Position numbers and translations under genes: made by a program. From assembly GCA_050302075.1 (NCBI GenBank), contig JBNLAH010000008.1, forward strand, positions 1-43,112: a DNA stretch of 43,112 bases, in the 5' to 3' direction. Position 1 is the first letter of the stretch. Every line of letters begins with the position of its first letter. The stretch comes from Parachlamydiales bacterium (GTDB taxonomy: Bacteria > Chlamydiota > Chlamydiia > Chlamydiales > SM23-39). Positions 9,586 to 42,276 of the stretch are shown here, piece by piece. The notes under the pieces are model-generated. The model was not told where the DNA came from. It did no database searches and worked only from the letters and a program-made list of their open reading frames with translations.

Positions 9586-9613
9586 TTTACTTAGATAAGG
9601 AGGAATAGTAATT

Positions 9614-10519
9614 ATGAGTATGATTTCAATTAATCAATTTCCGGGCTTACAGGAGCCTATTTTAGCTGATCTGTTTTGGGATCAGTTTAATAAAGAACGA
9701 CAAGTTTTTATGGCAATGTTTCCAAAAGAGCCATCAACAAAGATAAAAGAGACACTTTTAACCTTAACAGATATAGGACAGCTTACACAATTCTCTGGAA
9801 ATATGGAATATGCTGACCTTGAGCAAGCATATGAGTCTTATGTTACTAATATGCAGTATGCTAGAGGTTTAAAGTTCTCAAGGAAATATATAGATACAAA
9901 CCAGTATCCACAGTATTTCAAAGATGCAACTAGAATGCTAGGAAGGGCAGCAGGAAGAACATCAGAGCAAGTAAGAGCTGATATTTTTAATAATGCTTTT
10001 AATACAAGTGGTGATTTTGTTCATGGAGACCTCAAAGCTCTTTGTGCTACAGATCATCCTGTGCCTGACGGGTCTTTTACACAATCTAATGTTGGAACAA
10101 CAGCATTATCACCAGCAGCAGTTTCTACTGCTAGGGCAGTAATGAGAAGATTCAAAACCTATACTGGTGAGCCAATAGATGCTCAGGCAACTGCTTTGAT
10201 TGTTGCACCAGAAAATGAGGATTTAGCAGATAGGATAGTAAATTCGACGCAGTATGCGTTAACAGCTAATAATGATATAAATCCTAGAAATATATCAAAA
10301 CTTAAGATTATAACATCTACAAGATTAAGCGATTCAAATAATTGGTTTTTAGTAGATGAGTCATTAAAGGATATGTTTTTAAAATGTTTTGATGTTACAG
10401 CCCCAGAATTTGGGAGAGATGTTAATACTGATAGTTTATCGGTTAAGTATTATGCTTATATGTATTTTGGTGTTGGATATACAGATTGGCGTTGGATTTA
10501 TGGTTCTAATGTATCTTAA
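9614..10519 (+). CDS. Major capsid protein (Mu gpT-like, HK97 fold)
   Basis: YARGLKFSR, ADIFNNAF, GDLKALCATDHP, LIVAPENE, SNNWFL, GVGYTDWRWIYGS. Confidence 0.92.
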   Translation: MSMISINQFPGLQEPILADLFWDQFNKERQVFMAMFPKEPSTKIKETLLTLTDIGQLTQFSGNMEYADLEQAYESYVTNMQYARGLKFSRKYIDTNQYPQYFKDATRMLGRAAGRTSEQVRADIFNNAFNTSGDFVHGDLKALCATDHPVPDGSFTQSNVGTTALSPAAVSTARAVMRRFKTYTGEPIDAQATALIVAPENEDLADRIVNSTQYALTANNDINPRNISKLKIITSTRLSDSNNWFLVDESLKDMFLKCFDVTAPEFGRDVNTDSLSVKYYAYMYFGVGYTDWRWIYGSNVS

Positions 10520-10582: not shown

Positions 10583-11068
10583 ATGTTAAAAAATTCTTTA
10601 AATCAAGGGATTGAACCTTTGGACCTTAGAAAGCAGTGTTTAGGCTATAATGAGCAGGAAAGATTGAGGCAAGAAATTTCTATATTAGAAAATGAAATTA
10701 AGTATAGAAATAATCTTAAGATTAATGGTGTAGATGCTTATATTCCGGATGATGTATATTCTGAAATGGTAAAAAAGTTAAAAAGAAAAAAAATAGCATT
10801 TGAAAGAAATAAGGCGCCTCATGTCTCGGGAAAAGATAAAGATATTCTATATCAAGAAGCTAAACAGTTAGAAGAAAAAATTAAAGAATTACAATTAACA
10901 AAAAAAGAACTTTATGAAGAAGACCCTATTAAGTTAGCGCAAATAACACAAAGGCATATGAAAAATTACGATAAATTAACTGAAATGGAAATGCGCTATA
11001 AGAATATTATGCGTAGATTAGAACCAGACAATCCTGAAATAACGGATGTCAATAAATTTAGGAGATAG
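10583..11068 (+). CDS. Hypothetical helical protein
   Basis: ORF with GAGG RBS. Confidence 0.7.
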   Translation: MLKNSLNQGIEPLDLRKQCLGYNEQERLRQEISILENEIKYRNNLKINGVDAYIPDDVYSEMVKKLKRKKIAFERNKAPHVSGKDKDILYQEAKQLEEKIKELQLTKKELYEEDPIKLAQITQRHMKNYDKLTEMEMRYKNIMRRLEPDNPEITDVNKFRR

Positions 11069-11070
11069 CA

Positions 11071-11772
11071 ATGAAAAAAATATTGATTTTAATGTTTATA
11101 TTATCTTTTGTTTCTTTTTCTATATCAGCTCTTACCCAAAGCGGGACAGATATATGGATGGTAGGAACAACAGACGCAGGAGCAGTTCTTGATAGTGATG
11201 GGAGCTTAACTGTTACAGCAGATTTAGTAGCGCAAGATGACCTTACAGTAACAGATGATGCCTCTATTGGCGGTGATTTAGCTTTAACAGGTGATTTGAC
11301 TTTAGACGAAATTACAGCGTCTACCGCAACAATTACCTATACTGTAACTGCTGGGACATTAACAGATGGAACAGCAAGCATAACAGGAGGGGCTGGATCA
11401 GGATTTGGGCTTATTACCGCTTCTAGCGTAACAGTTACCAACACAGCCACAGCTGGAACACTTACAGATGGTACAGCTTCTCTTACTTCTGGAGCTTTGA
11501 CAAGTGCAACAAATGTAGCAACATCAAGCGCTACGGTTACATATGCATTTACGCTTGGAGCAAGCGAGACTCTTGATTATGATGATAGCAATTACGAGAT
11601 AGATATAAGTACAGATATAAAAGTAGGCGGTGTTATAGGTTTTTCTGTTAATATTGATACCAGTACAGCCCCAAAAGCAGTAGGATTTTTAGGCATTGAT
11701 AGTTCATATCAACTTTATATGGCAACCGGAACGTCAGCTGGCCAATGGCAGCTTGTAGGAAGTCAGTCTTAA
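11071..11772 (+). CDS. Fibre-like structural protein with N-terminal signal peptide
   Basis: MKKILILMFILSFVSFSISA|; DLTVTDD/GDLxLTG and GTLTDGT repeats. Confidence 0.7.
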   Translation: MKKILILMFILSFVSFSISALTQSGTDIWMVGTTDAGAVLDSDGSLTVTADLVAQDDLTVTDDASIGGDLALTGDLTLDEITASTATITYTVTAGTLTDGTASITGGAGSGFGLITASSVTVTNTATAGTLTDGTASLTSGALTSATNVATSSATVTYAFTLGASETLDYDDSNYEIDISTDIKVGGVIGFSVNIDTSTAPKAVGFLGIDSSYQLYMATGTSAGQWQLVGSQS

Positions 11773-11789
11773 AATAGGAGAGAATTATT

Positions 11790-12185
11790 ATGTTAGTAAA
11801 TTCACAAATACAGATGACAGATAAAGACGGGACGGCAGATATTGCGGTAGCAAGCACAGGGACTGTTTATACAAAAAGTCTTGATTTAGGCTATAAAGAA
11901 TACTTTGCATTGTTTTTAACTGCAACATCAAGCGGCACTGTCAATGTAGTAGTTACATTAGAGCAGTCTTACAGGACACCTCGTCCGGAAGGTGTGGCAG
12001 ATACAGAATGGGTTGCACCTGAAGGGGCGTCTACTATTATTACTTTATCTGATGAAAATTCGCATATTACTCCTATTAGCAGTATGAAGGCATTACCGTA
12101 TTTTAGGTTAAAATTGGTAGGGGATACGGGCAATGATGCCTCGACAACAGTTAATATAAGGCTTGGATATGTTGATAATGTTTAA
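11790..12185 (+). CDS. Small beta-sandwich structural protein (no signal peptide)
   Basis: Alternating beta-strand pattern (VVVTLEQS, PYFRLKL). Confidence 0.6.
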   Translation: MLVNSQIQMTDKDGTADIAVASTGTVYTKSLDLGYKEYFALFLTATSSGTVNVVVTLEQSYRTPRPEGVADTEWVAPEGASTIITLSDENSHITPISSMKALPYFRLKLVGDTGNDASTTVNIRLGYVDNV

Positions 12186-12227
12186 TATGTTCCACGAGGA
12201 ACATACATAGTTATTAAGGGGTAAAGC

Positions 12228-12989
12228 ATGAAAAAAGTATTGATAATATTTTTCATTAGTTTATTATTTTCTACTGCATATAGCTATACTGCTAGTTTTT
12301 ATGAAATATCAAGAAGCACTAGCGGGAATAGTAATTTACAAGATATTCGAGTATTAGTTAGAGAAGAAATAAACGACTCTACTAATACATATAATACAAA
12401 CAGATATACAGATGCAGAAATAAATAAATATATTAATATTATTCATGAGGATGTATGTATAAATACTCAAGTATTGCTAACGCAATGTACTGGTCAGCTT
12501 ACTGCTGGGACCACAGAGTATTATTTACCCCTTAATTTTCTAGCTTTTCAAAGAGTTATTTATGATCCTGTTAATGGTGATACAGATTATTTATTAGAAG
12601 AAAAAAATCCGTACGACATGGATGTTGATAACTCTGGATGGTTTACAGTAGCACCATCTACTCCTACTAATTACTATCGCTATCCTGCTTATAATAAAAT
12701 AGGGTTTTATCCTGCACCTGCTTATAGCAGTTCTGTTGTTACAATTTGGTATATAAAAAGGCCAGATGAGTTAACAAGCGATACGGACGAAATATTTGAT
12801 AGTATTCCTGTATTAGAGAGCTTTAGACGTGCAATTGTAGTAGGAACAAGCGGAATTATTTATATGCAAGAAGGCAATCCTATGTATTCTATAAAATTAC
12901 AAGAATATTCGGGATATATAGAAAATATTAAGAAAAGTTATGATTTAATGCCAAATTATGATCCAAGTATAAGGGTATATAAAAAATGA
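12228..12989 (+). CDS. Head-tail adaptor / tail tubular protein A-like, with signal peptide
   Basis: LQDIRVLVREEIND...YTDAEINKYIN, YYLPLNF, PTNYY, IGFYPAP, WYIKRPDEL; N-terminus MKKVLIIFFISLLFSTAYS|. Confidence 0.8.
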   Translation: MKKVLIIFFISLLFSTAYSYTASFYEISRSTSGNSNLQDIRVLVREEINDSTNTYNTNRYTDAEINKYINIIHEDVCINTQVLLTQCTGQLTAGTTEYYLPLNFLAFQRVIYDPVNGDTDYLLEEKNPYDMDVDNSGWFTVAPSTPTNYYRYPAYNKIGFYPAPAYSSSVVTIWYIKRPDELTSDTDEIFDSIPVLESFRRAIVVGTSGIIYMQEGNPMYSIKLQEYSGYIENIKKSYDLMPNYDPSIRVYKK

Positions 12990-15900
12990 AGTATATTTTA
13001 GCCATTTTTTTTTCTTTTTTTTTATTTCTAGGCTTTGGGTTATGTGAACAGGTCAGTTTTAGTGATTTTAGTGGTGGTTTAAGGACTGATGTTAATTCAG
13101 ATTTATTACAAGCAAACGAGTCTCCTGATTGCGAAAATGTTATAGTCAGTGAAATAGGTACATCTTTATTGAAAAGACGTGGATTTGCTATATTTAGTAG
13201 TCTTGTAAGCTCTTTTACTGTAAATTCCTCAAATAAATATATTGATATGAGTATAGGCGCAGTATTCCCAGAGGAAAGAACGGCTATTGTGGCAGAGGGG
13301 ATTTATGAAAATATTACAGATTTATTAGCGGCCGTTACTACAGCTCTTGTTGCAGTAGGGGTAGGAGATGAATTTAAGGCAGAATTGTCAGGAGGCAAAG
13401 TAAAAATATATAGGGATATTCCAATAGGGAATATTCCATTAAATTTATATTTTGCAACTGGAACGCATGCGGATAAATCTATGGCATATATGCTGGGCTT
13501 TGCTGCCTCTGATTATACGGGCGTATGGGAGGGAACAGGATATACTGCCCCTAACGTATATGTTGAAAACACAGCAACTACAGATAGTTCAGGGTGTCAA
13601 GGGTTTAGCTTATTTCAAGAAGAGAGTACGGGTTATGATTATTTTATTACTCCACATGGCCAATATGTTTCTAAACTTTATATTGATAATGGCGATCGCA
13701 CTGATTTTATTACAGATCGTACTACTACAACAACAACTTATGATCAATATACTTTAGATGAAGAATATATTTACGGTTGTAATGGCTATGATTATAACTG
13801 GAGATATGACGGTACTACTTTAACAAGATTCAGCACATATACAGTAACAACAGGCAGTATTTATTTTGATTTTTTGATAGATAGCACTACTACTAATGTT
13901 ATTGCTGGAACAAATAATAGCCAATTAGCGCTTATAGATACAACAAATGACGATATAGACAGTTTATTAGATTTAGATAATAATGTTGGAGCAATAACTT
14001 ATGACGGAACGAGTCATTGGGTTACCATTCCAACATTAAACAAAGTAAACAAGGTAGATTTAGCAAATTCTACTATAGATGATACTGTAACGGTTGGGAA
14101 TAATCCAACATCAATTGAGGCTTATGTAGATAATATTTTTATTGTAAATGAAGATGACGATACTGTTACAATTTATGAAGACGGAGTAGGAACAGTAGAG
14201 ACTGTTACTGTAGGGGATAAACCAAGTGCTATTATAAGTGAAGACTATTACATAGGAGATGAAGCAGTAACATTAACTCAAACTGCTAGTTATCCAAATA
14301 TTTTAGACGGTGTAATAGACTCATCCTATTTATATTTTACTAATGGAACAAGTCTCTATAGATTGTATAATACATCAACAACAGCTGAATCTATAGGAAC
14401 TATTGCAAATCATTATCAAATAACCATAGATAGCAATAATTATACCTGGGCAGCATCAACTACTACTAGTAATATTTACAAAGTTTACAAAACATCTGAT
14501 GTTGTTATTTCGACATATAATTTTATAAGTGAATTAAATGTAATAAGTGTTGGAGACTATCCAAGTGCTTTAGAATATGACGGTAGTTATTTATATTGCA
14601 GTAATTATAATGATGATACGATTTCTAAAATAAATCCTTCTAATAATGTTATCATAAGCAGCCTTACAGTAGGAACTAATCCTAATGCATTACATTTTTT
14701 TAGTGGAGATTTATATTGTGCTAATTATAGCGATAATACTGTTTCTAAGATCAGTACAAATACTTTTACTATAATTAGCAGTATGACGGTAGGTGATTTT
14801 CCACAAGCATTAGAAGATGATGGAGAATTTTTATATTGCACTGGTGGGGATGGAGTATCTTTTGTTTCAAAAATAGATATAGATAATATGGTAATAATTA
14901 GCAGCATTCCTTTTTCTAATACAGCAAATCCTTATGATTTACATTTTTTTAATGGCGATCTATATGCAGCAAATGAGGGCGACGATACTGTTGTTAGGGT
15001 AAGCACAACTACACAAGTTATAGTAAGCACTATCACAGTAGGAACAACACCTAGAATTTTAAGTGATGATGATACTTATATATATTGTAGTAATGGGGGA
15101 GATAATACAATTTCTAAAATAAGCACAAGCGATGTTATTATTAGTAGTTTAACTGTAGGGAGTGTCCCTTGGGGGCTACATTTTTTTAATGGAGATTTAT
15201 ATTGTGCTAATGCTGGGGATGATAATGTTTCAAAAATCAGTACAAATACTTTTACTATAATTAGCAGTGTTACTGTTCAAAATTATCCTACAATTCTTTA
15301 TGACGATACAGAATTTGTATACTGTATTAATAGAGAAAGTGATACAGTATCAAGAATTAATATGAATGATAGAACAATAGCAGATAGTTTATTTGCTAAT
15401 AATTATTTATGGCTAGCATTTGAAGAAGATCGTATATGGCAAGTGGATGTAGGGAGTGCTTTTGATATTAATAATGTAGTTACTACTAATATAGATAATC
15501 CTAAAAAGTTAGGTTATTATGATAGTAGTATTTGGGCAGCTAATTATGATGGAGCGTCTGTTACAAGAATAGCCAAAGATAGTGCTACTGTTATAGCTGA
15601 AATATCTGTCTCAAGCAGCGCTTTAGATATGGCTTATGATACTTCGCAATATGTATATGTGGTAACAGAAGATAGCGCAACTATTGATAAAATAGATGTA
15701 AACACAAATAGCCTGGGAACAGGATTTACAACATCTGTTCAATATCCAGATTATGTAGAATATGGAAAGAATTATTTAGCATTTTCTAGTATAGCGTCTG
15801 ATGAGTTTTGGATAATCAATTTACAGGATAATAGTGCTCTTTCTAATGAAACCGCAAATTTTTCAGCTTCTTATTCTGATATATTTTTTAACAGTTCTGT

Positions 15901-17452
15901 AGAAAATAATTTTTACTTTGCTAACACAGAAAATACTTTTACAAAGGCAAATTTTGATGATTATCATTTATATGTAGCAAATGAAAACGATGATACAGTT
16001 ATAAAATTTAGACATAATGACTTTACTAATAGCAGCACTACTATTTCTGTAGGAACAACACCTATTGATTTAGATAGAGATACAAACAATATATATTGTT
16101 TGAATTATGGCGATGAGACTATATCAAAAATATCTAAAACTACTGATTTAGTAGTCTCAAGCATTACAACAGGAAGTACACCTCAGGATATTTTTGTTGA
16201 TAACGATACATATTTATATGTAACAAATTTAGGAAATGATAATATTTATAGGATAGAATTAGCTGGTTTTACATTAAATGCCACTATTCCTGTAGGAGAC
16301 CCAGTATATGTAACAAGAGTTGGAGACTATTTGTATTGTGTTCAATCTGATAATAATATTGTAAAGATAGATACTACAACGTTTAGTTTGACTTATATAG
16401 ACAATACAAAATATACAGTTTATGATTTTCCAAAGACTTTTACACATGCATTTTTTAAAGAAAGATATTGGATTGCTAATACTACTACTACACCAAATAA
16501 AATATGGCATTCTGTAGAGGAAGACCCACTTAATTTTGATACTTTATATAGCTTAGATGAGTTAAACTTGAATGCTGATAATTTTACAATAGGAGCTACA
16601 GGTAAAGGTATTAATAAACTATTCAATTATTCTGGTACATTAATGGTTTTTAAAGATGATAGTATTTATAGAATTGTTGGAGAAGAGACACCATTTTCCA
16701 TAATTCCTGTATCTAAATTTTTAGGATGTCCTTATGCTAATTCTATTTGTGAGGATAGCGGATATTTATATTTCTTTGGAAACGATAAATATTTTTATAC
16801 TTTTGATGGCGCTAATTTAACACGAATATCTCAAAATATAAGAGAATCAATAACTAAAAATATAAGTTATGTATCTTCTAAGTGGTATAGAGCTAAAATG
16901 TATTCTTATATACAATATACAGATGATACTGACGATATTTTTGTGTTCGATATTCTTACAAATTCGTGGTGGAGATATGATGGTTTTTATCCGTATCAGC
17001 TAGAAAGTTATAAAGATGATTTATATTTAGCAGATGAAAGATTTCCTTACATTTTAAGACAAGAATATTCAAGTCCTGTGTATTATGATTATTATTCAAG
17101 TACAAGTACAGCCCAGGCCATAAATTCTTATTATTATACTAGACTAGATTACTTAGATAATCCTGTTATGAAAAAGAGTCTTAATTATTTTTCTATTCTC
17201 ATGAAAGCTCAAAGTACAGGCAGTTTTTATTTAGATTATTTGATTAATGATGTTACATCTCAACAACTTACTTATAGTATGGTAGACAGCAACAGCAAGC
17301 CTTCAATCATCAGAAATAATAGATACCCTAGAGGAGAAAAGGGCGATTATTTTCAATGGAAATTTTATAATGCGCAGGCTAGTCAGACCTTTGATTTATA
17401 TAATTTCTTAACTGATTATGAAGTATTAGAATTTTTGGAGATAAGCGAATGA
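12986..17452 (+). CDS. Tail nozzle / tubular protein B (P22 gp10- or T7 gp12-like) with signal peptide and inserted YVTN-like beta-propeller repeats
   Basis: DFSGGL...ESPDCENV...LLKRRGF N-terminus; LMVFKDDSIY, GCPYANSI, DNPVMKKS C-terminus; ~40-aa TVGxxP...LYxAN...VSKI repeats. Confidence 0.8.
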   Translation: MKYILAIFFSFFLFLGFGLCEQVSFSDFSGGLRTDVNSDLLQANESPDCENVIVSEIGTSLLKRRGFAIFSSLVSSFTVNSSNKYIDMSIGAVFPEERTAIVAEGIYENITDLLAAVTTALVAVGVGDEFKAELSGGKVKIYRDIPIGNIPLNLYFATGTHADKSMAYMLGFAASDYTGVWEGTGYTAPNVYVENTATTDSSGCQGFSLFQEESTGYDYFITPHGQYVSKLYIDNGDRTDFITDRTTTTTTYDQYTLDEEYIYGCNGYDYNWRYDGTTLTRFSTYTVTTGSIYFDFLIDSTTTNVIAGTNNSQLALIDTTNDDIDSLLDLDNNVGAITYDGTSHWVTIPTLNKVNKVDLANSTIDDTVTVGNNPTSIEAYVDNIFIVNEDDDTVTIYEDGVGTVETVTVGDKPSAIISEDYYIGDEAVTLTQTASYPNILDGVIDSSYLYFTNGTSLYRLYNTSTTAESIGTIANHYQITIDSNNYTWAASTTTSNIYKVYKTSDVVISTYNFISELNVISVGDYPSALEYDGSYLYCSNYNDDTISKINPSNNVIISSLTVGTNPNALHFFSGDLYCANYSDNTVSKISTNTFTIISSMTVGDFPQALEDDGEFLYCTGGDGVSFVSKIDIDNMVIISSIPFSNTANPYDLHFFNGDLYAANEGDDTVVRVSTTTQVIVSTITVGTTPRILSDDDTYIYCSNGGDNTISKISTSDVIISSLTVGSVPWGLHFFNGDLYCANAGDDNVSKISTNTFTIISSVTVQNYPTILYDDTEFVYCINRESDTVSRINMNDRTIADSLFANNYLWLAFEEDRIWQVDVGSAFDINNVVTTNIDNPKKLGYYDSSIWAANYDGASVTRIAKDSATVIAEISVSSSALDMAYDTSQYVYVVTEDSATIDKIDVNTNSLGTGFTTSVQYPDYVEYGKNYLAFSSIASDEFWIINLQDNSALSNETANFSASYSDIFFNSSVENNFYFANTENTFTKANFDDYHLYVANENDDTVIKFRHNDFTNSSTTISVGTTPIDLDRDTNNIYCLNYGDETISKISKTTDLVVSSITTGSTPQDIFVDNDTYLYVTNLGNDNIYRIELAGFTLNATIPVGDPVYVTRVGDYLYCVQSDNNIVKIDTTTFSLTYIDNTKYTVYDFPKTFTHAFFKERYWIANTTTTPNKIWHSVEEDPLNFDTLYSLDELNLNADNFTIGATGKGINKLFNYSGTLMVFKDDSIYRIVGEETPFSIIPVSKFLGCPYANSICEDSGYLYFFGNDKYFYTFDGANLTRISQNIRESITKNISYVSSKWYRAKMYSYIQYTDDTDDIFVFDILTNSWWRYDGFYPYQLESYKDDLYLADERFPYILRQEYSSPVYYDYYSSTSTAQAINSYYYTRLDYLDNPVMKKSLNYFSILMKAQSTGSFYLDYLINDVTSQQLTYSMVDSNSKPSIIRNNRYPRGEKGDYFQWKFYNAQASQTFDLYNFLTDYEVLEFLEISE

Positions 17453-18060
17453 AAAAAGTTATAGTAGCTATTTTGTTGATTATTTTTGTTTTAATCCCTC
17501 TTTTATTTGCCGCGCAAAGCTTAAAACAGAAAACAAGAATATATAATTTTTATAATGATAACAGATTAAACGAAGAATTTGATAATGTCTATTATCAAAT
17601 AAACAAGATAGTAAAAGAATTTAATAAAATTAACAATAAATGCAGCCTCTATTTAAGTAATGATATTAGCTTAACAGGGGGCACTTTTATTGGGTTTACT
17701 CAAGAATATTTTGATATAGGAGATATGCATAGCACAAGTATAAACAATGAAAACATAACAATAACCCAGACAGACAAAATAAATTTTATTGTTAATTTAC
17801 AATGCAAAATAACTCCTGCCACATCCTTTACGAATGTAATACTTAGTATTTACAAAAATAATAATATTATAGGCAAAAAATATATTTATATAGATAAAGG
17901 TATTTCAAGCAGTACTTATATAGATTTTACAGTGGTGGATCAAGGACAAAAGGAAGATATTATAAAGTTATATATAGAGACAGACAATGCAATAACTATA
18001 GATATTAAGAATAATACTGATACAAACGAAGAATTTGGATTGGGAGTTTATCGAATTTAG
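17449..18060 (+). CDS. Tail-associated protein with signal peptide and C-terminal C1q/jelly-roll-like domain
   Basis: MKKVIVAILLIIFVLIPLLFA|; LNEEFDNV; FDIGDMHS. Confidence 0.6.
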   Translation: MKKVIVAILLIIFVLIPLLFAAQSLKQKTRIYNFYNDNRLNEEFDNVYYQINKIVKEFNKINNKCSLYLSNDISLTGGTFIGFTQEYFDIGDMHSTSINNENITITQTDKINFIVNLQCKITPATSFTNVILSIYKNNNIIGKKYIYIDKGISSSTYIDFTVVDQGQKEDIIKLYIETDNAITIDIKNNTDTNEEFGLGVYRI

Positions 18061-18071
18061 GGGGTTTAAAG

Positions 18072-19745
18072 ATGGGAAATGTAAGTATAATGCCAGTTCC
18101 TAGACCAGTTAATGTTAAAGGTAAAAAGGTTAAAGAAATATTACAAACTTATGATTTACCAACATTAACAGATGATCAAATAAATAATTTAGCAAATGAA
18201 TATGGATTATCTGCTGATGAAATTAATAATTATGTAAGTTTTATAACAAACCAGATTAAAACTCACGCTGGAATGGGAGCAACAGACAAAAGCGATGCTT
18301 ATAATAAATTAGTAGGAAAATATGAAAATATAGCAACAAATTTCAAAAGTATGGAAGATTATGTAAATAGTGTTGTTGACAATGTTTACAAGAAAGGATT
18401 AGAAGGATATGCGTTGCTAAAAACTGGAAAAGATAGCGATGGAAATTCTTTAATTTCAATGGCCCCTACAGAAGATGAATTAAAAGACTATTTTGATATA
18501 TTAGAAAATTCTGGATTAGCAGGCTCTAATTTAAAAAGTCGTTATAAAAGAAAAGGTTATCCTGATGAAGAATTTATAAAGGGTCAATATTTTGTTGATC
18601 AAGCATTGTTGAATGATCCTACAATCTCCGAAGATGTAAAGTTTAGTATTTTAAATAATCTATCTAAATTTGGAGGTAAATTTGAAGATTATAACATTAT
18701 ACTTGGGGATATGAATTTAGCAACCCCAGAAAAAACTGATAAATTTTTAAAAGATTATGTACAAATTTTGGCAAATCAGCCAGCCGAAGCCTTTGACGTA
18801 GAAGGAACACCAGACTTAAGAAATATTATTTTAGATAAATTAAGAGAGGGCATGGAAGTAACGGACATAGATCAAATAATTAATGATATCATTATGGAGG
18901 GAGAATCCCCTTATGTAGACGAAACAAAATATACTGACGATACTACTGATGATACTACAGATACTACAACACAAACAAGTAGAGAAGAAGTCCAAGATAT
19001 TTTAGACTCATTAGGAATATCTGCAATGTTTGACGATGCAGAAAGGGAAGACGCTTTAAATTATTTTTCTAATCTTATAGATGAAGGAACAGCGTCTCCA
19101 TATGAAATACGAGCGCTTTTGCAACAATCCCCTGAATATCAAAAGGTACAGCAAGAACAAGAAAGGGCTGCTATTCAACAAGAAGCAACAGAAACGAGAA
19201 GAGCATTAGGAACAGAGCTTGAAAAAGGTACAGGCAGGTTTTTAGAAACTACATTAGCACCCGCATTAAGACGTGAATTTAGTCAACTTGGGGGAAAAGA
19301 TAGGGCATCATTAGAAGCAGCAAGCTCAAGAGCTTTACGAGATATTGGACAAGAACGAGAGTCAACATTAGCACAAGCAGGCCTAGAACAAGCAGCAAGA
19401 CAAGAAGGATATCAAAGAGAAGATTATATAAGCCAAATGGTTAATCAATATAATCAAGCAATGTCAAAATGGAACCAGGCATATACCAAGCAAGCAGAAG
19501 CAAGACAGCAAGAAATTCAAAAATATTGGTATCCTATACAACAAGCAGGAATAAGACAGCAACAAGCTTATCAATCTAAGGAAGCAGATTTAAATAGAGA
19601 TTGGCAAACCTATATGGCTAACTTACAGAGAGGTTGGGACGAGGACGATTGGGCAAGAGGTGAAAGTTTAGCTAAACGTCAGAATTGGTATAATTTGTTA
19701 GGAACAGGCATAGGTGCTGGTATAGGTGGATGGGCTGGGAAATGA
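18072..19745 (+). CDS. Internal virion/DNA ejection protein
   Basis: Gln/Ala-rich helical C-terminal half ending in a glycine zipper LLGTGIGAGIGGWAG; podovirus synteny. Confidence 0.65.
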   Translation: MGNVSIMPVPRPVNVKGKKVKEILQTYDLPTLTDDQINNLANEYGLSADEINNYVSFITNQIKTHAGMGATDKSDAYNKLVGKYENIATNFKSMEDYVNSVVDNVYKKGLEGYALLKTGKDSDGNSLISMAPTEDELKDYFDILENSGLAGSNLKSRYKRKGYPDEEFIKGQYFVDQALLNDPTISEDVKFSILNNLSKFGGKFEDYNIILGDMNLATPEKTDKFLKDYVQILANQPAEAFDVEGTPDLRNIILDKLREGMEVTDIDQIINDIIMEGESPYVDETKYTDDTTDDTTDTTTQTSREEVQDILDSLGISAMFDDAEREDALNYFSNLIDEGTASPYEIRALLQQSPEYQKVQQEQERAAIQQEATETRRALGTELEKGTGRFLETTLAPALRREFSQLGGKDRASLEAASSRALRDIGQERESTLAQAGLEQAARQEGYQREDYISQMVNQYNQAMSKWNQAYTKQAEARQQEIQKYWYPIQQAGIRQQQAYQSKEADLNRDWQTYMANLQRGWDEDDWARGESLAKRQNWYNLLGTGIGAGIGGWAGK

Positions 19746-19759
19746 GGAGGTAAAAAATA

Positions 19760-20905
19760 ATGGCTACAAATAAATATTTAGATTGGTCAAGGCCTATAAT
19801 ATCAGGTTTTGAATTTGGATTTAATCTTGCACAAGAAAAGAAAGAGGCTAGAAAAAAAGATGATTGGAAAATGTTTTTATCTGGAGTTACTTTAATGAAA
19901 TCTAAACAACCTCTACCTGAAGGGTTATCAGATTTTATGAATAATTATATGGAAAAGAATTATGGCGTACAGGCTAATTTTGAAAGTTATGTGCCAGAAG
20001 ATAAAACAAAAACGCTTAGGCTAGATGATGCCGAAGGAATTATTAAAAATGCACAATCAGTATATGGACAGCCATTTTTAGGGAAAGAAAAAGATTTAGC
20101 AAAATTTATAAATGACAATACTACAGAAAATGGAAATTTTAAAATGTCAAAAGATGATTTAGAGGGATATTTAGATACTTATTACAGCAACCTGCTTAAA
20201 ACACAGGGCGATGTTAAAAAGCAACAGGAAGCTGCTAAAAAAGAAGTAAGAACATTTAAAAATTCTATTAAAAAGAAAGAACTTACTGATCTTATTACTG
20301 CTAAAACAAAATTAGATAAAGTAGATGGAATGATTCAACAGCTTAAAACTTTATATTACGAAGCTTATGATCCTATAAGTGTTAAAAAAGGAGATGTGAT
20401 AGGCGGGGTGGGGGCTAGATTAAGAGGTAAAGGAAAAGGCCTTGCAGGTTTCTTAGGAGCAAACCCACAAGCACGAGTATATAAAGATTTATCACAGGCA
20501 ATATCAAGTTTATTGGCAAAAGGAGTATGGGGAGAAGCAGGAAGATTAACTGATCAAGATATTGTAAGAGCGTTAGGAGCTCTTGGATCAGAAACTAATA
20601 CAAAGCAAGAAGCAGATGCAAAATTTAACCTTTTGACAAGTTTATCAAAAAAAGCTATGACTAATTTTAATAATCGCTGGAAAGTCTTAACTGGTGCGCC
20701 TTATAATGAAAATATTGCCTATGAAGCACAAGTTAATCTTACCCCTTATGAAATGGAAGATATAGATATGGAAGAGGAAGAGAATAGCTTTACAAGGCCT
20801 TTATATCAGTTAAGACCAGAAGCAGCAATAGAAGAAGATGTAGAAGTTGAAAAAGAACCAGAAAGCGCAATAGCAGTTAATCAGTTTTCTGATATAAATT
20901 TTTAG
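19760..20905 (+). CDS. Internal virion/DNA ejection protein
   Basis: GEAGRLTDQDI motif; helical; synteny. Confidence 0.6.
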   Translation: MATNKYLDWSRPIISGFEFGFNLAQEKKEARKKDDWKMFLSGVTLMKSKQPLPEGLSDFMNNYMEKNYGVQANFESYVPEDKTKTLRLDDAEGIIKNAQSVYGQPFLGKEKDLAKFINDNTTENGNFKMSKDDLEGYLDTYYSNLLKTQGDVKKQQEAAKKEVRTFKNSIKKKELTDLITAKTKLDKVDGMIQQLKTLYYEAYDPISVKKGDVIGGVGARLRGKGKGLAGFLGANPQARVYKDLSQAISSLLAKGVWGEAGRLTDQDIVRALGALGSETNTKQEADAKFNLLTSLSKKAMTNFNNRWKVLTGAPYNENIAYEAQVNLTPYEMEDIDMEEEENSFTRPLYQLRPEAAIEEDVEVEKEPESAIAVNQFSDINF

Positions 20906-20913
20906 GAGGAGTA

Positions 20914-22380
20914 ATGTATTACACAGAAGCAGCAGAAAAGATACGAGAGCAAAAACCTAGTTTATCTAATATGTATGATGATGACAAAGTTTTAGTAGAA
21001 GCTTTTATAAAAGCTCGTCCTGAATATGCAGAAAAAATAACCTTTGAAATGCCAGGCATGGAAGCCAGCATGCAGCAGACTACTCCACAAAGATATGGTT
21101 TTCTTGAGAAATTAACTGGTCAAAGAAGAGGAACTCCAACAGCATTACCGGGAATGCCTCAAGAAAAGGAGCCTTTATATCAATACCCGGGCACACCTTT
21201 AGGTAAAAAAAGAACAATAGACAAATTTTTGCCTTCTGGATTTAAAACCTTAACTTCTCCACGAGTAGCAGGACAGGTAGGACAAGAGGCTATAAATGCA
21301 GCATTATTAAATATGCCTAAAGCAATTTTAGGGAAACTAGGGTGGAGTTTACCAGCAGCAGAAACAGGAACAGAAAAACTAGCATCTATAGGCGGAACAG
21401 TAGCAGGCGCTTTAGCTCCAGTTGGACCAGCAGGACAAGTAGCGCGAGCGCCAGGGCGTATAAAAGCATTTACAAAACTTCCTGGAGTGGTAAAAGGAGC
21501 TATTGGCGGTGCTCTTGAAGGTTTAGCATGGACACCAGAAACAAAAGAAAGCGATTTAGTAGCTATTGATAAAAGATTAGGACAGGCTGGAATAGGAGGT
21601 TTAATAGGCGCAGCTTTAGGGGGAATATCTAGTGCTTGGGATAATTTAGGAAAAGTAAAAAATTTAAAAACAGATGAAGGACAGGTAAAACTTTCTAAAA
21701 TAATAGGGAAAAATTTATTTAAAGCCAAAAGAGAAGCAGGTAAAAAGTTTGAAACAGCCTTAAATACTCTTGCTGATAAATATCCAAAAACAATGGTAAA
21801 AACTACTGATATAGTAGATAATCTCGCAGAGGTAATAGATGATAATAGAATATTAAGATCATTAATGAGAAAAAGTCCTCTTTTGGAAGATTTAGCTACA
21901 AGTCCTCGAGATATAACAATAAAAGAAGCTCAAAAATTATCTAATGAATTAAATGCTTTAATGCCTAAGAAATTTGTAGAAGGCGATGTAGGGTTTTTAC
22001 AGCTTGAAGCAAAAGATTTAATAGATAATATAAGATTAGCACAATTAGAGGCATTCCCAGAACTTGCACCAGTTAGAGCAGATTATAAAAAATTTATGGA
22101 TAATTTTAATTTATTAGTTAAAAAAGTAAAAGACCCAGATATGCTTTTAAATGTTATTGCTAATGAATGGAGTGGTCCTGCAAAAAGGATCGCTGCAAAA
22201 AAAATATTAAAACCCAGTTTACAAAAACCAATTAAAAACTATCAAAAAATAAAGCAAGCAGAAAAATTTGGAAAAAAAATTAAAGAAAACGCAGTTATAG
22301 GAGTAACAGGAGGAGCAGCAGCAGGCGCAGCCGTTACTGGTTTATCTAAACTTTTAGGATTAGGAGGACGTAGAAGATGA
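20914..22380 (+). CDS. Internal virion/DNA ejection protein
   Basis: Several Gly/Ala zipper segments (GAIGGALEG, GIGGLIGAALGG, GGAAAGAAVTG). Confidence 0.6.
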   Translation: MYYTEAAEKIREQKPSLSNMYDDDKVLVEAFIKARPEYAEKITFEMPGMEASMQQTTPQRYGFLEKLTGQRRGTPTALPGMPQEKEPLYQYPGTPLGKKRTIDKFLPSGFKTLTSPRVAGQVGQEAINAALLNMPKAILGKLGWSLPAAETGTEKLASIGGTVAGALAPVGPAGQVARAPGRIKAFTKLPGVVKGAIGGALEGLAWTPETKESDLVAIDKRLGQAGIGGLIGAALGGISSAWDNLGKVKNLKTDEGQVKLSKIIGKNLFKAKREAGKKFETALNTLADKYPKTMVKTTDIVDNLAEVIDDNRILRSLMRKSPLLEDLATSPRDITIKEAQKLSNELNALMPKKFVEGDVGFLQLEAKDLIDNIRLAQLEAFPELAPVRADYKKFMDNFNLLVKKVKDPDMLLNVIANEWSGPAKRIAAKKILKPSLQKPIKNYQKIKQAEKFGKKIKENAVIGVTGGAAAGAAVTGLSKLLGLGGRRR

Positions 22381-25028
22381 AAAAAATTATTTTAGGACTA
22401 TTATTTTGTATTAGTTTATTGAGTTTAGGTCTAAGTTATAATACTGGTGGCTATGATGAAGGTGATTTATACATGGACGCAAACTCTATTAGGGGTAATA
22501 ATACTACTGGTTTATATTTTGATCCTGATAATGATGGAACTAATGAGATTATTTTTGATACAGCAGGTTATATAACCTCAAATGGTATAAATATTACAAG
22601 TACAACAATAGATGCAAATAGTATTGAAACTGATTATTTAACGGTTAATAGTACAAGTAGCTTTGGCGATACATCTTCTTTTTCCTATGGAATATCAGCA
22701 GCAACAGGTGTTTTTAGTGGGTCTATAGAGGCTGCTGACTTATCAGTAACCACGGTAACAGCCTTAACCCCTTTAGACGGCTTGCATATTATGAATAATG
22801 GAAATAAAGGCATTCGAGTAGAATTAGATGGCGATGTTACAATAGGCGATTATTCTACGTCAGCTTCTAATTACGATTTAACTGTTATTGGAGGAATGCA
22901 AACTCCCTCCGTATACGGAGATGGTATCCCAGGTCTTACATTACAGAATAGCGCAGGTGCTAGTATTGCTATTACTTATTCTACTGTTGCGGTTACCGCA
23001 ACAGAACTTACAGCCTCTGGAAATTTAGACGTTACAAATACAATAACAGGTGGCACATTAACTGATGGAACATTAACTATTAATAGCGGTCAACTTTTAA
23101 GTGGAGTAACTGTTGAGGCAGGAATAGGAGATTTTGATACAGTATATACATCAACAATACAATCTAAGTCCCCGCTTTATATACTATCTAATGACGAGAT
23201 GTACTTTGACGATATAAATACTACTTCTTTAATTACATTATCTGACTCAAACAATGCAGTATATAATAGCGATAACCAAACCCTTGTAGGAAGTGTAAAT
23301 AATGTTTTATCTGCTCTAGGGTGTGCAGGCCTTTTAATCGGGGGAGCAATAACAGATAATTTGGATGGGACAGTAGATGTGGCAAGTGGGCAAGGATATA
23401 TTAGAATAGAGGATAGCTCTACCACAACATTAAAGTATTTCACTTTTTCTGCGGCTTCTAGCGTTGCATTAACAGATAATAGCGAAAATTATATATATAT
23501 AGATTATAATAGCGGGACACCTGTGGTTGCAGTTACTACAAGCGGGAGCACTATTAGAGCTAATGAAAATGATCAATTTGAAATAGGAGAAGTATATAGA
23601 GAAGGAACAGATTTACATATTACTATGCATAATCAAAAAGCAGAACCTGGACGTTTGTTGCAACAGAGATTGTATGATGAAAATACCATTATAAGAGCTA
23701 ATGCGATAGGTGGCTTAATACTAGGGGAAACAGGAACAAGAAATGTAACAATGTCAGCAGGAAAAATTTGGATAAAGCTTAATTCTGAAAGTTTATCTGC
23801 AATTGATACATCTGTAGCAGATACTTTCGTAAGATATTATCAAGATGGAGTGGGCGGCTGGACTGAACAGACTGCACAGACACAGTGGAATAATACTCAA
23901 TATGATGACGGGTCAGGATCACTTGCAAGTATAGGCGTTGCGAAATATTCTTTTCAAGAATTTTATATTGAAAGCGATGGGGGACTAGTAAGTGTTTTTG
24001 GACAAAATGAATATAACTCACTAATTGGGGCGGAAAATGCTGGAACATTATCAACTATTCCTGATAGGCTAGGAGATCATGCGTTATATATTGGACGTAT
24101 AGTTTTTCAACAAAATGACAGTAGTGCTCAAAGTGTATTATCACCTTTTACCAATATATTAAGCCCCGCGTCAGTTACAAATCATAATAATCTAGCAAAT
24201 CTTGATTATGCTTCTGCCGGACATACAGGTTTTGCAGGCACAGGAGTTGCTAATACATTTACTTCTAGTCAAACAATTAATAATATAATAGAAACAAGCA
24301 CAGTAACAATAAACGGATCAACTACATTTCAGAGATTAAGTATAACAGGGCAAATGCGATTAAATGAAGATGCAGCAATTTTGGGAGGCGATCATATAGG
24401 GCTAGCGGCAAATACTGATGTATTAATAGTAGCAGATGTTAACGATACTTCTGGGCTAAGCGCTAATGATATAATTATGGGTGCAGGGAGTAGCTCTACT
24501 TCTGGATCGGATACCTGGGCAAACATATTTCCTACTGATCTACCTAGGAATGAATTTGTAAGAATAAAAGGAAATAGCGGGAGGGTAGGAATAGGCACAA
24601 ATGCACCTGACTATGAATTGGATGTTGTTGGAAATATCAATGCTGATTATGGAGTTATAGCATCAAGCGGTACGTTTGAAACAATAATAGTAAGCAGTTA
24701 TACTGTAACAACAGGAGTTGACAGCCTGCTTAATGGTAGTTATGGTACACAAATTTCGTCTTTTACAATTAGTGCAGAATATGACGTTCAAGCTCATGAT
24801 GCAACGCTAATTATAACTTCAGCAGATGCAGGAGCATATAATGTAATTTTGCCTGTTGTTGCTTCTAGCAATAGAGGAAGAATTATAACAGTAATAAACT
24901 CAGGCGCTGATAATTTCACAGTGGAAGGAACTATTAATGGGGGCAGTAATTATGTACTTATTCCTTGGGCAGCAGCAACATTTCAAAGTGATGGCACGAG
25001 TGGATGGGTAATTTTAAGTACAAAATAA
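22377..25028 (+). CDS. Tail fibre / receptor-binding protein with signal peptide
   Basis: MKKIILGLLFCISLLSLGLS|; HNNLANLDYASAGHTGF, GRVGIGTNAPDYELDVVGNI fibre motifs; C-terminal ATFQSDGTSGW. Confidence 0.8.
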   Translation: MKKIILGLLFCISLLSLGLSYNTGGYDEGDLYMDANSIRGNNTTGLYFDPDNDGTNEIIFDTAGYITSNGINITSTTIDANSIETDYLTVNSTSSFGDTSSFSYGISAATGVFSGSIEAADLSVTTVTALTPLDGLHIMNNGNKGIRVELDGDVTIGDYSTSASNYDLTVIGGMQTPSVYGDGIPGLTLQNSAGASIAITYSTVAVTATELTASGNLDVTNTITGGTLTDGTLTINSGQLLSGVTVEAGIGDFDTVYTSTIQSKSPLYILSNDEMYFDDINTTSLITLSDSNNAVYNSDNQTLVGSVNNVLSALGCAGLLIGGAITDNLDGTVDVASGQGYIRIEDSSTTTLKYFTFSAASSVALTDNSENYIYIDYNSGTPVVAVTTSGSTIRANENDQFEIGEVYREGTDLHITMHNQKAEPGRLLQQRLYDENTIIRANAIGGLILGETGTRNVTMSAGKIWIKLNSESLSAIDTSVADTFVRYYQDGVGGWTEQTAQTQWNNTQYDDGSGSLASIGVAKYSFQEFYIESDGGLVSVFGQNEYNSLIGAENAGTLSTIPDRLGDHALYIGRIVFQQNDSSAQSVLSPFTNILSPASVTNHNNLANLDYASAGHTGFAGTGVANTFTSSQTINNIIETSTVTINGSTTFQRLSITGQMRLNEDAAILGGDHIGLAANTDVLIVADVNDTSGLSANDIIMGAGSSSTSGSDTWANIFPTDLPRNEFVRIKGNSGRVGIGTNAPDYELDVVGNINADYGVIASSGTFETIIVSSYTVTTGVDSLLNGSYGTQISSFTISAEYDVQAHDATLIITSADAGAYNVILPVVASSNRGRIITVINSGADNFTVEGTINGGSNYVLIPWAAATFQSDGTSGWVILSTK

Positions 25029-25043: not shown

Positions 25044-25418
25044 ATGGAAAATAATAGAAAGCGTCAAGTAGTAGAAATTAGAGCCGAGGATATTCAGAAT
25101 TTGCATGAAATAACCAAAATATCTAATATGATAGCTGCTATACAGCAGAAAATAGATGATGTAGTAATTGTAACCTTAAATAATCATACAAACGTACTAT
25201 TTGGGCCTGATATGAGAGGTGGTTTAGTTAATGATTTTGAACATTGTCATAGTAAAGTAGAAAATATGATAAAAGAAATAGAGTATAATGCTCAAAAAAT
25301 ACATGAACATAAAAAAAACCATTGGAAAACTACTACATTGATTGTAGGGGTTATAACTGCTATAATTAATTCTATAATTACTTTGTTTACAAAGTTTTTT
25401 ATAGCTCATCCTATTTAG
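25044..25418 (+). CDS. Coiled-coil protein with C-terminal TM helix (lysis-associated)
   Basis: C-terminal LIVGVITAIINSIITLF; lies just before the endolysin. Confidence 0.55.
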   Translation: MENNRKRQVVEIRAEDIQNLHEITKISNMIAAIQQKIDDVVIVTLNNHTNVLFGPDMRGGLVNDFEHCHSKVENMIKEIEYNAQKIHEHKKNHWKTTTLIVGVITAIINSIITLFTKFFIAHPI

Positions 25419-25430
25419 GAGTATGAAAGT

Positions 25431-25913
25431 ATGTTAAGCAATGAAGAAATAAATTCAATGTTAGATGTAGAAAATGTTAGGGGATATAAAACGCCTAAAC
25501 GTTTTTTTTGTATTGAAGAGCTTGTACATCCTGATATATATGTTGAATATGGTGAAGAAAAATGTTGGCAATTATTAGACTCAAGAATGTTGATAATGCT
25601 AGTAAAATTAAGGCTTAAGCTTAATATTCCTCTTGTTATTAATACTTATCATAAAGGAGGTGCAAGACATTATTCTGGACTAAGACCTCCTCTACATCCC
25701 GAGCATTTTAAATATGATTCAACATCTCAACATGTATTTGGTAGGGCTTACGATATAATATCAAAAGATATATCAGCAAAAGATATGAGAAAACATATCT
25801 TAGAAAATCAAGATTTTTATAATTATATTACATACATGGAAGATGGTGTTAACTGGCTTCATATAGATTGTAGAAATAGCACCTTTGACAAAATACATCT
25901 TTTTAAAGTATAA
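25431..25913 (+). CDS. Endolysin, peptidase M15 family
   Basis: SGLRP, SQHVFGRAYD, WLHIDCR zinc-peptidase motifs. Confidence 0.88.
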   Translation: MLSNEEINSMLDVENVRGYKTPKRFFCIEELVHPDIYVEYGEEKCWQLLDSRMLIMLVKLRLKLNIPLVINTYHKGGARHYSGLRPPLHPEHFKYDSTSQHVFGRAYDIISKDISAKDMRKHILENQDFYNYITYMEDGVNWLHIDCRNSTFDKIHLFKV

Positions 25914-28964: not shown

Positions 28965-29135
28965 ATGCTACAAGGAAAAAAAACTTATATAACAGGCGCA
29001 ATAATGATAGCAATATACATACTAGAAAATATTCTAGGTATTGATATTCCTACAGTAGATAGTTCAGGGAACCTTTTATTGCAAGGAATAGCTTTATTGA
29101 CTGGTAGATCAGCAATTAAAAAATTAGAGAAATAA
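28965..29135 (+). CDS. Holin-like small membrane protein (56 aa, not in the ORF track)
   Basis: MLQGKKTYITGAIMIAIYILENILG...GIALLTGRSAIKKLEK: GKKTY start, two hydrophobic segments, basic tail. Confidence 0.65.
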   Translation: MLQGKKTYITGAIMIAIYILENILGIDIPTVDSSGNLLLQGIALLTGRSAIKKLEK

Positions 29136-29138: not shown

Positions 29139-29291
29139 ATGTGGTATAAAACAAATGATGTAGATATTTTTCTTACAATAATATATCTTCTGCTTTTTAT
29201 TCTATGTTTTGTCTTGTTCTCTTGGAAATTAGCTTTAATTGTTTTTTTAATTTGCGTGATAGCTAATAATACTAAGAAAGTCCAATATTAA
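29139..29291 (+). CDS. Small membrane protein (50 aa)
   Basis: MWYKTNDVDIFLTIIYLLLFILCFVLFSWKLALIVFLICVIANNTKKVQY. Confidence 0.5.
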   Translation: MWYKTNDVDIFLTIIYLLLFILCFVLFSWKLALIVFLICVIANNTKKVQY

Positions 29292-42216: not shown

Positions 42217-42276
42217 CATCCAGTAAAACAAGGATTGAAACATAGTAGACAATGTTTACATTGTAAGGAAAGGGAA

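Follow-up and report, generated by a model that had tools for sequence, protein, structure and literature searches.

Predicted export signals on podophage tail proteins and a possible two-compartment route of virion assembly

The window analysed here, a stretch of 43,112 nucleotides that constitutes a circular ~43-kb podophage contig, encodes five tail-module proteins with signal-like N-termini, and comparative evidence strongly supports their being authentic Sec-type signal peptides under selection, carried by true tail components of the virion. Predicted export signals are kept on recognisable podophage tail parts by a deep and populous lineage. We propose, with a probability of roughly 0.5, that virion assembly in this large lineage of uncultured short-tailed phages is split between two compartments, the complete tail being exported by Sec. 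As to the route, the balance tips slightly towards cleaved Sec signals and export of the whole tail, including the adaptor, which would join cytoplasmic heads after the inner membrane is breached. That the tail proteins are exported and cleaved, accumulate in the periplasm and join the heads late is what we infer from the sequence signatures, their conservation and their strict partition by place in the virion.

The five N-termini combine a basic n-region of the MKK or MKY type, a short hydrophobic core within the h-region range of roughly 7–17 residues (~17 residues for the genes at 17449 and 12986), and small residues at positions -3 and -1 (Table 1). Their hydropathy over 12 residues is 2.9–3.9, compared with 1.7 or less for TerL, the portal, the putative scaffold, the capsid protein, the 131-aa protein and the ejection proteins. 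The original prediction of five such N-termini, with none on head and ejection proteins, holds for the reading frames and their translations, but the set was incomplete: a crude von Heijne-type rule from our own rule set flags 7 of the 61 ORFs in the window, which are the five tail genes and two minus-strand early genes that had been missed. The same rule flags 208 of 1301 long ORFs (16%) in the remainder of the genome, so the number of calls in the window is unremarkable by itself; what goes beyond chance is the placement and the conservation of the signals.

Table 1. Features of the window discussed in the text; a slash marks the predicted cleavage site.
Feature	Coordinates	Strand	Predicted signal	Predicted cleavage	Matches and remarks
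Portal	5353..7437	+	none		PF23899 SU10_portal, E 2.6e-16; hydropathy 0.23
Major capsid protein (HK97 / Mu gpT type)	9614..10519	+	none		PF25209, E 3.5e-20
161-aa helical protein	10583..11068	+	none		After capsid gene; last gene before signal-bearing block
233-aa fibre-like protein (lead)	11071..11772	+	11071-11130	...SISA/LTQSG	
131-aa protein	11790..12185	+	none		Within signal-bearing block; phrog_28213, E 3.2e-13
Head-to-tail adaptor (SU10/T7 type)	12228..12989	+	12228-12284	...AYS/YTASF	
1488-aa nozzle-like protein (putative)	12986..17452	+	12986-13045	...GLC/EQVSFSDFSGG	
203-aa small tail protein	17449..18060	+	17449-17511	...LFA/AQSLK	
Three putative ejection (internal virion) proteins, 557/381/488 aa	18072..22380	+	none		No cysteines
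883-aa tail fibre	22377..25028	+	22377-22436	...GLS/YNTGG	
Lysis genes: 124-aa protein and 160-aa endolysin	25044..25913	+			phrog_689, 2.2e-5; phrog_894, 1.2e-19
Early gene	31298-32218	-	rule-called		Crude rule
Early gene	33128-34078	-	rule-called		Crude rule

A Shine-Dalgarno-like motif lies 5' of each of the five tail-module starts, and those at 12986, 17449 and 22377 overlap the preceding stop as ATGA, so that the annotated starts are well supported; with no in-frame start at the signal boundary in the window, downstream starts were rejected. The N-termini could also be viewed as an annotation artefact or a compositional accident, with the real starts downstream, since codons for Ile, Leu, Phe and Lys abound in AT-rich genomes and the rule flags so many host ORFs. 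However, among related loci spanning 31–60% GC the trait persists in those of 46–60% GC, which led us to reject AT-rich composition as its cause, and an artefact would also have to spare every ORF of the head module. We give this explanation practically no credence.

In the window and eight related loci, rule-called signals are found in none of the 57 head-module ORFs, in 41 of the 44 ORFs from the post-capsid gene through the nozzle, and in 5 of 37 further downstream. The partition of the signals follows the geometry of the virion.

The adaptor profile retrieved 1053 cluster representatives (E ≤ 1e-3), most of the 155 examined bearing the signal. A hydrophobic extension is present in 129 of these 155 homologues (130 with a slightly looser cut). 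It has a median length of 21 aa (range 16–54) and runs up to the point where the conserved domain begins; at this boundary, residue -1 is small in 111/129 (A72/S18/G11/C7/T3) and residue -3 is A, S, G, V, L, C, T or I in 120/129. The early mature region of Sec substrates is known to avoid positive charge, and a Lys or Arg among the first six mature residues is seen in 23 of the 130 adaptors with a signal versus 15 of the 18 without one, although the latter mostly form one clade and do not count as independent points. Against the export reading, several arginines follow from about position 7 of the mature adaptors, whose net charge is +0.21 over 18 residues. Between relatives, sequence is lost more quickly in the signal than in the mature protein (21–53% versus 52–74% identity for adaptors, 14–25% versus 48–57% for nozzles), yet its hydrophobicity is kept in the orthologues. 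On a tree of 143 adaptors the signal state changes three times, one of these being a truncated row, against 17.2 times in shuffles, and is thus stably inherited. All nine clade nozzles aligned (the window and eight loci) have a hydrophobic N-terminus, which in the window, L003 and L004 stops just before a conserved start that aligns with the start of the signal-less nozzle of L017.

With regard to the type of signal, a lipobox L-[AS]-[GA]-C with Cys at +1 is found in none of 130 adaptor extensions and an RR-like motif in only seven, so that lipoprotein and Tat signals were rejected. The G-F-G-L-C sequence of the window nozzle does not form a canonical lipobox and lies at a position where the orthologues end in A or S; a separate protein of L004 (9136-9921) looks lipoprotein-like. 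A disulfide rationale was also discarded, as the signal-bearing proteins of the window are not enriched in cysteine, and cysteines per adaptor do not differ (mean 1.80 in signal-bearing, n=125; 2.41 in signal-less, n=17). SecY and signal peptidase I are both encoded by the genome that holds the contig.

The initial assignment of the adaptor is confirmed by family and fold, and that of the fibre by family. The adaptor matches PF24175 with 73.8 bits (cut-off 27) over residues 36–204, which places the predicted signal outside the family domain; its cleavage site was positioned from the orthologue alignment. Its AF2 model (pLDDT 91) has the adaptor fold, with a helix bundle, a beta domain and a C-terminal loop, and is matched by Foldseek to solved podophage adaptors (9k09_d, 1e-9; 7z47_B from SU10, 8e-9; 8jov_2, 1e-8; 7box_N, 8.5e-3), while the adaptor profile finds only a weak match (E 0.95) in the PDB by sequence. 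The tail fibre matches phrog_5668 tail fiber protein (E 3.1e-24, residues 312–595), with no match in the PDB by sequence, and a protein of L004 (7663-9078) has a mature start like that of the fibre behind its own signal.

The nozzle assignment is putative, and is based on the position after the adaptor, whose stop the gene overlaps, on size, on beta-propeller content (Vgb_lyase 1.3e-6, below cut-off; 1L0Q 4.5e-16, residues 534–761) and on a shared N-terminal motif. This motif, DFSGG, does lie just behind the predicted cleavage site, as originally described, and aligns with the extreme N-terminus of the signal-less L017 nozzle. Pfam and PHROG gave no nozzle family for this protein, and the PDB by sequence only a YVTN beta-propeller protein. 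The 203-aa protein, with signal-bearing orthologues in L003 and L004 and viral 'minor tail protein' clusters as its nearest in the Atlas (0.93–0.94), may be needle- or fibre-knob-like, and this role is a lead. The same applies to the fibre-like role of the 233-aa protein, for which no family was matched in Pfam or PHROG: its mature part contains TLTDGTAS-type repeats and begins with a conserved D-I/V-W-x-V-G stretch, as do the orthologues of L004, L013 and L014, which likewise bear a signal.

Among the signal-less proteins, the 131-aa protein has a weak PKD-like match below cut-off and a likewise signal-less orthologue in L004, and the 161-aa protein, with orthologues in six loci, gives an all-helical model (pLDDT 80). 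The ejection role is assigned by gene position only, and in related loci signal-less orthologues of these proteins also come after the nozzle. Of the two lysis proteins, that of 124 aa has a single C-terminal membrane helix and a weak holin match (phrog_689, 2.2e-5), and the endolysin a Peptidase_M15_3 match below cut-off, with neither signal nor anchor in a hydropathy scan.

From these observations we propose the following route. The five N-termini would be Sec-type signal peptides cut by signal peptidase I. Heads, comprising portal, scaffold, capsid, packaged DNA and the internal ejection proteins, would be made in the cytoplasm, whereas everything distal to the portal would be translocated through the inner membrane, unfolded and in precursor form: the adaptor, which is normally the first to bind the portal, the nozzle, the small needle- or knob-like protein and the two fibre-like proteins. 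The mature tail parts would gather, and perhaps pre-assemble, in the periplasm, and would meet the heads only once the inner membrane is breached, most simply through holin lesions at the end of infection; an endolysin with no signal of its own needs such a membrane-breaching holin. Joining could take place within the still-enclosed cell envelope or shortly after the cell lyses. Against such a route stands the direct contact between adaptor and portal in solved podophages, and filled heads of P22-type phages lose their DNA when they have no adaptor. Our search for a protein that could seal the portal before tail joining gave no candidate: the 161-aa protein, considered as a cytoplasmic portal plug, gave no PDB fold match at E ≤ 1e-3 and no match in the Atlas, Pfam or PHROG.

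The original prediction left open whether the tail apparatus is exported or tethered to the membrane, and the comparative sequence evidence supports the export part. For tethering, the N-termini would be uncleaved signal-anchors that hold the tail proteins at the inner membrane and organise assembly there, the helix being later removed or kept. N-terminal hydrophobic helices could indeed serve as type II anchors; residues 2–13 of the adaptor are helical in the AF2 model, the uncharged run reaches at least 20 residues in 19 of 130 adaptor extensions, and in the window the cores of the 17449 and 12986 signals are ~17 residues long. Nevertheless, with median lengths of 21 aa for the extension and 17 for its longest uncharged run, most would be too short for a stable span, and the small -3/-1 residues at the homologous boundary would have no purpose without cleavage. 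A basic n-region would, moreover, still put the bulk of the protein outside the cytoplasm, leaving the topological problem unchanged, and we consider anchoring unlikely.

Hardly more probable is a dual fate, in which only a fraction of each protein is exported and serves some other end, for instance to block receptors and so prevent superinfection, or to loosen the envelope from inside. The copies found in virions would be those retained in the cytoplasm, either because export becomes saturated late in infection or because translation starts internally, behind the signal. This would preserve the classical route of cytoplasmic assembly, and in 14 of the 130 signal-bearing adaptors a Met lies exactly at +1, where the signal-less relatives start, so that some members may have a second, cytoplasmic isoform. 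In the window, however, neither a Met nor another possible start lies at the boundary in the adaptor, nozzle or fibres, it is not obvious what a portal adaptor would do away from the virion, and the contrast of 41/44 tail with 0/57 head ORFs suits a shared compartment better than five moonlighting roles.

The N-termini could instead be kept in the virion and act at infection, for example as membrane-inserting peptides freed as the tail opens. Podophage tails must cross two membranes, and rearrangement of the SU10 tail on attachment is known (PMC9509320). Still, the adaptor sits at the portal, distant from the host membrane, the ejection proteins, which are expected to form the trans-envelope channel, have no such segments, and the segments are poorly conserved in sequence, with a cleavage-type motif that would go unexplained. 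Such a role seems very improbable, and export with cleavage remains our preferred reading.

The contig lies within the assembly of a chlamydia-type genome, which it resembles in GC content (31.1% versus 33.5%), tetranucleotide usage (r 0.94) and RSCU (r 0.93), and the rest of which encodes four full TLC transporters, in line with an intracellular way of life. It shares no DNA or protein with the rest of the assembly and carries no tRNA. In addition, it is contained in part in 'marine metagenome' sequencing runs, none of those listed being an RNA run. The portal of the window had no counterpart among 400 further genomes scored from the phylum (one more genome was left out), while PF24175 adaptors occur in five other genomes of the 401 searched; the ORFs at the seven match positions in these five podophage elements (L027–L031) have no hydrophobic N-terminus, and an adaptation specific to chlamydiae is thus unsupported. 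The special host membrane compartment suggested earlier likewise finds no support, the trait tracking the phage lineage, over loci of 31–60% GC, and not the host phylum. An obligate intracellular, chlamydia-type bacterium as the host of this tailed phage is a tentative assignment with the odds against it, and the combination of two-compartment assembly with such a host, where heads and tails would be confined together in the closed host vacuole upon release, is rather doubtful.

According to textbooks, tailed-phage morphogenesis is wholly cytoplasmic. If export is real, head–tail joining must wait for the membrane breach, the DNA must be held in tail-less heads by some further means, and the timing of lysis becomes part of assembly. 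In phage annotation pipelines, a signal peptide counts as a reason to discard a virion-protein candidate, a practice that would then have to change. As exported tails imply a diderm host, the trait could also serve host prediction.

In the full-text literature outside subscription journals we found neither podophage adaptors or nozzles described as having signal peptides, nor any account of tails assembled in the periplasm or of a tailed phage that infects chlamydiae, in keeping with the earlier remark that this route was not known from characterised tailed phages. Searches with tblastn of 50,697 GenBank phage records gave no match for the adaptor (two queries), the portal or the N-terminal 505 aa of the nozzle. 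The capsid protein has 24 matches there, all below 60% identity, and in the two matched records inspected, an uncultured podophage (L032) and Roseobacter phage CRP-901 (L033), the tail proteins have no signals. Pattern scans of species-representative genomes, with a four-sequence alignment and a single protein as queries, found no prophage copies.

In T7 (gp11/gp12) and P22 (gp4/gp10/gp9) all tail parts are cytoplasmic and are joined to filled heads before lysis, whereas the tail parts of the window carry predicted export signals. The window adaptor nonetheless shares the adaptor fold class (7box_N, E 8.5e-3), and separately made heads and tail parts of T7 and of P22 join after mixing in in-vitro complementation, which is exactly what the proposed late joining needs. 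Host export signals are known in tailed-phage lysis proteins that use Sec, the spanin lipoproteins and SAR endolysins; these are non-structural, while in the window the endolysin is signal-less and the signals are on structural tail proteins. That the P22 tailspike has no signal since export is unneeded is the usual view, as worded in a preprint legend (10.64898/2026.09.13.751334). The filamentous phages (Inoviridae) have Sec/YidC-dependent virion proteins, such as G3p of M13, whose precursors bear signal peptides that are cleaved off and whose assembly takes place outside the cytoplasm (PMC8310372), but they are an unrelated virus type, whereas the window has an HK97-type capsid, a terminase and a portal, with the signals on the tail only.

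Escherichia phage SU10 (Kuravirus) has a tail built of portal gp6, adaptor gp11, nozzle gp17, needle gp18 and fibres (PMC9509320; PDB 7z47, 7z4b, 7z4f), and shares with the window the order adaptor, nozzle and small tail protein, as well as a small Ig-like gene close to that of the capsid protein. The two are also alike in the portal (PF23899) and adaptor (PF24175) families, in the adaptor fold (7z47_B, E 8e-9, TM 0.58/0.64) and in the beta-propeller content of the nozzle, which is putative in the window. They differ in that the window, with a genome of ~43 kb, has an adaptor, portal and nozzle with no tblastn match (E ≤ 1e-3) to any GenBank phage, and in that its adaptor, aligned only from residue 36, carries a hydrophobic leader of ~20 aa outside the Pfam domain.

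Five tail-module genes of the window, starting at 11071 (233 aa), 12228 (adaptor), 12986 (nozzle), 17449 (203 aa) and 22377 (fibre), begin with the candidate Sec-type signal peptides given in the original prediction, with which our translations agree. No such N-terminus is present on TerL, the portal, the proteins encoded from portal to capsid, the capsid protein, the 161- and 131-aa proteins or the three proteins that follow 17449–18060. One rival explanation is that such N-termini are an artefact; as to the objection that the real starts lie downstream, a Shine-Dalgarno-like motif precedes each of the five starts, and three of them overlap the preceding stop as ATGA. Using our own von Heijne-type rule set (basic n-region, hydrophobic core within an uncharged stretch, small residues at −3 and −1, total length ≤26), hereafter the crude rule, 7 of 61 window ORFs were positive, namely these five genes and two in the early region, absent from the original list. 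The rule was also positive in 208 of 1301 long ORFs (16%) of the remaining genome, so that the count of signal calls alone is not remarkable; it is their position and conservation that are.

The window is an entire contig (C8) of a 1.84 Mb assembly of 89 contigs. Its first and last 77 bp form an exact direct repeat (1–77 and 43036–43112), by which it closes as a circle of ~43,035 bp. From its sequence we read it as a complete podophage genome or a circularly permuted assembly of one, with the features listed in the table below; no tRNA genes were found in the window. An annotated GroES gene is also present in the head module of two distant capsid relatives, an uncultured podophage (L032) and Roseobacter phage CRP-901 (L033), upstream of the capsid gene in both and adjoining the portal in L032.

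Features of the podophage contig (window coordinates)
Feature	Coordinates	Strand	Remarks
Two adjoining GroES/Cpn10-like genes	271–606 and 697–951		Pfam E 8.5e-4 and 1.5e-4; phrog_3188
151-aa protein	1774–2229		N-terminal membrane helix; immediately upstream of TerL; weak holin PHROG match (E 0.03)
TerL	2234–3943	+	Plus-strand block
Portal	5353–7437	+	SU10-type
Capsid protein	9614–10519	+	HK97 / Mu gpT-type
Adaptor	12228–12989	+	SU10-type
Tail fibre	22377–25028	+	phrog_5668 match
M15-type endolysin		+	After the tail fibre gene and the holin candidate at 25044–25418
124-aa tail-anchored protein (weak holin match)	25044–25418		Holin candidate
Low-GC segment	25920–28000		GC 24% vs 31% for the contig; GT4-like glycosyltransferase gene straight after the lysis genes
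Two small ORFs	28965–29135 and 29139–29291		Holin candidates; one and two membrane helices
306-aa early protein	31298–32218	−	Signal-peptide-like N-terminus; weak DUF218 match
316-aa early protein	33128–34078	−	Signal-peptide-like N-terminus
Other arm			RecT, PDDEXK nuclease, SSB, DnaD-like loader, RusA, small-terminase candidate
Small-terminase candidate	42235–42684		Away from TerL

The distribution of signals was followed over whole tail modules in the window and eight loci, with alternative starts allowed under the crude rule; six of the loci, from IMG/VR and with 46–60% GC, had been located by an alignment of four adaptor sequences and were read over their whole length, and the start was corrected in two cases. 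The rule called a signal in 0/57 ORFs of the stretch that begins with the portal and ends with the post-capsid gene, in 41/44 of the following stretch, which ends with the nozzle, and in 5/37 further downstream. Of the three ORFs without a call in this second stretch, two are probably the 131/132-aa protein, one each in the window and the close relative L004, and the third is probably a long-leader L004 protein. The partition tracks virion geometry, separating head parts and contents from the parts beyond the portal.

The survey of related genomes suggested with the original prediction revealed the same gene-by-gene pattern in the two close loci L003 (55% identity) and L004 (42%), both with a signal on the adaptor, the nozzle and the ~200-aa gene after it, L004 also on the gene after the post-capsid protein, and neither on the head and post-nozzle proteins. 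L004 further encodes (9136–9921) a 261-aa tail-module protein with a lipoprotein-type leader ending in Cys, which has no counterpart in the window. A word-indexed protein search retrieved four close adaptor homologues (52–71% identity); in each of the three that are full-length a hydrophobic N-terminus, different in sequence, precedes a mature start that is conserved. Identity is 21–53% in the signal region versus 52–74% in the mature part for the adaptor, and 14–25% versus 48–57% for the nozzle. In the signal-less relative L017 both adaptor and nozzle begin directly at conserved motifs, among them D-F-S-G-G, which in the window comes after the predicted cleavage site.

An adaptor profile searched against 1.84 billion cluster representatives gave 1053 matches with E ≤ 1e-3, 209 of them with E ≤ 1e-10, and the best 150 together with five close ones were examined with a mature-domain HMM. 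In 129 of these 155 adaptors (130 with a slightly looser cut) a hydrophobic extension, 21 aa long in the median (range 16–54), ends at domain position 1, and 18 start at the domain itself, one of these being a truncated fragment; the rest comprise six partial matches and two others. At this boundary residue −1 is mostly small (A72, S18, G11, C7, T3; n = 129) and residue −3 is A, S, G, V, L, C, T or I in 120/129, while among the 130 extensions the median length of the longest uncharged run is 17 residues, an RR-like motif occurs in seven and a lipobox in none. An uncleaved anchor is one rival reading of these extensions. Sec substrates avoid positive charge early in the mature part, and a positive charge lies within the first six mature positions in 23/130 signal-bearing versus 15/18 signal-less adaptors. 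On a FastTree phylogeny of 143 mature domains, with the columns of the trait itself excluded, the signal state changes three times, versus 17.2 in shuffles; the signal-less adaptors form few clades and so are not independent points. Another rival is that export is partial and a second isoform stays in the cytoplasm; in its favour, 14/130 signal-bearing adaptors have a Met at +1, exactly at the start of signal-less relatives (P0019, P0021, P0026, P0028, P0042 and others). This Met could have been retained from the ancestral start or could serve as a second site of initiation.

The adaptor model (96-sequence alignment, pLDDT 91, pTM 0.83) places residues 2–13 in a separate helix, with the first 20 residues at lower confidence. 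The rest matches solved podophage adaptors, those of cyanophage A4 (9k09_d, 1e-9), SU10 (7z47_B, 8e-9), GP4, VP1, N4 and T7 (7box_N, 8.5e-3). In SU10 the adaptor is bound to the portal clip and bears the nozzle and long fibres (PMC9509320). The gene at 12986 encodes a putative nozzle, judged by position, size, propeller content and the common N-terminal motif; residues 534–761 (~14585–15268) are a YVTN-type beta-propeller segment, for which 1L0Q, the structure of a surface-layer protein from an archaeon, is a match (E 4.5e-16). The 233-aa protein has fibre-like repeats, and among Atlas clusters the 203-aa protein lies nearest to minor tail proteins of viruses, which is a lead to its role and no more.

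In the simplest reading, these N-termini would be Sec signals that are cleaved off, and the tail parts would be exported as one set. Head parts and contents would then stay in the cytoplasm, the parts beyond the portal would be exported, and heads and tails would join after the inner membrane opens. A role of the N-termini in infection is a further rival. Searches with the conserved 161-aa protein identified nothing that would seal the portal before the adaptor arrives, and no disulfide rationale for export was found. The endolysin itself lacks a signal, so that a holin able to breach the membrane is to be expected. Within 24.9–29.5 kb no spanin-like pair, with a lipoprotein of the outer membrane and a partner in the inner membrane, was recognised.

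The remaining genome of the assembly encodes SecY and signal peptidase I, and on contigs C1, C4, C5 and C6 carries seven TLC ATP/ADP-transporter genes, three of them partial and four full-length, the latter consistent with an obligate intracellular bacterium; a search for Chlam_PMP gave no match. GC is 31.1% for the phage contig vs 33.5% for this genome, the tetranucleotide correlation is 0.94 (>0.995 for the other large contigs), the RSCU correlation is 0.93, and no DNA or protein common to contig and chromosome was found. A search for the window portal in 400 other genomes of the phylum was negative (one more genome was unscored), PF24175 adaptors occur in five other genomes among 401, none with a signal, and two 'marine metagenome' runs contain about half of the sampled contig words. 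On these grounds, the bacterium of the assembly is a candidate host, and the trait belongs to a phage lineage and not to this phylum. The elements with PF24175 adaptors (L027–L031, in G298, G228, G014, G320 and G288) are podophage-like, with a GC of 39–61%.

GenBank phage records contain no match to the adaptor, portal or nozzle. The original prediction knew of no such morphogenesis route, and our full-text search of literature outside subscription journals likewise found no precedent and no description of signal-bearing podophage tails. The nearest capsid relatives share <30% identity, and in the two inspected, L032 and L033, the tail proteins are without signals.
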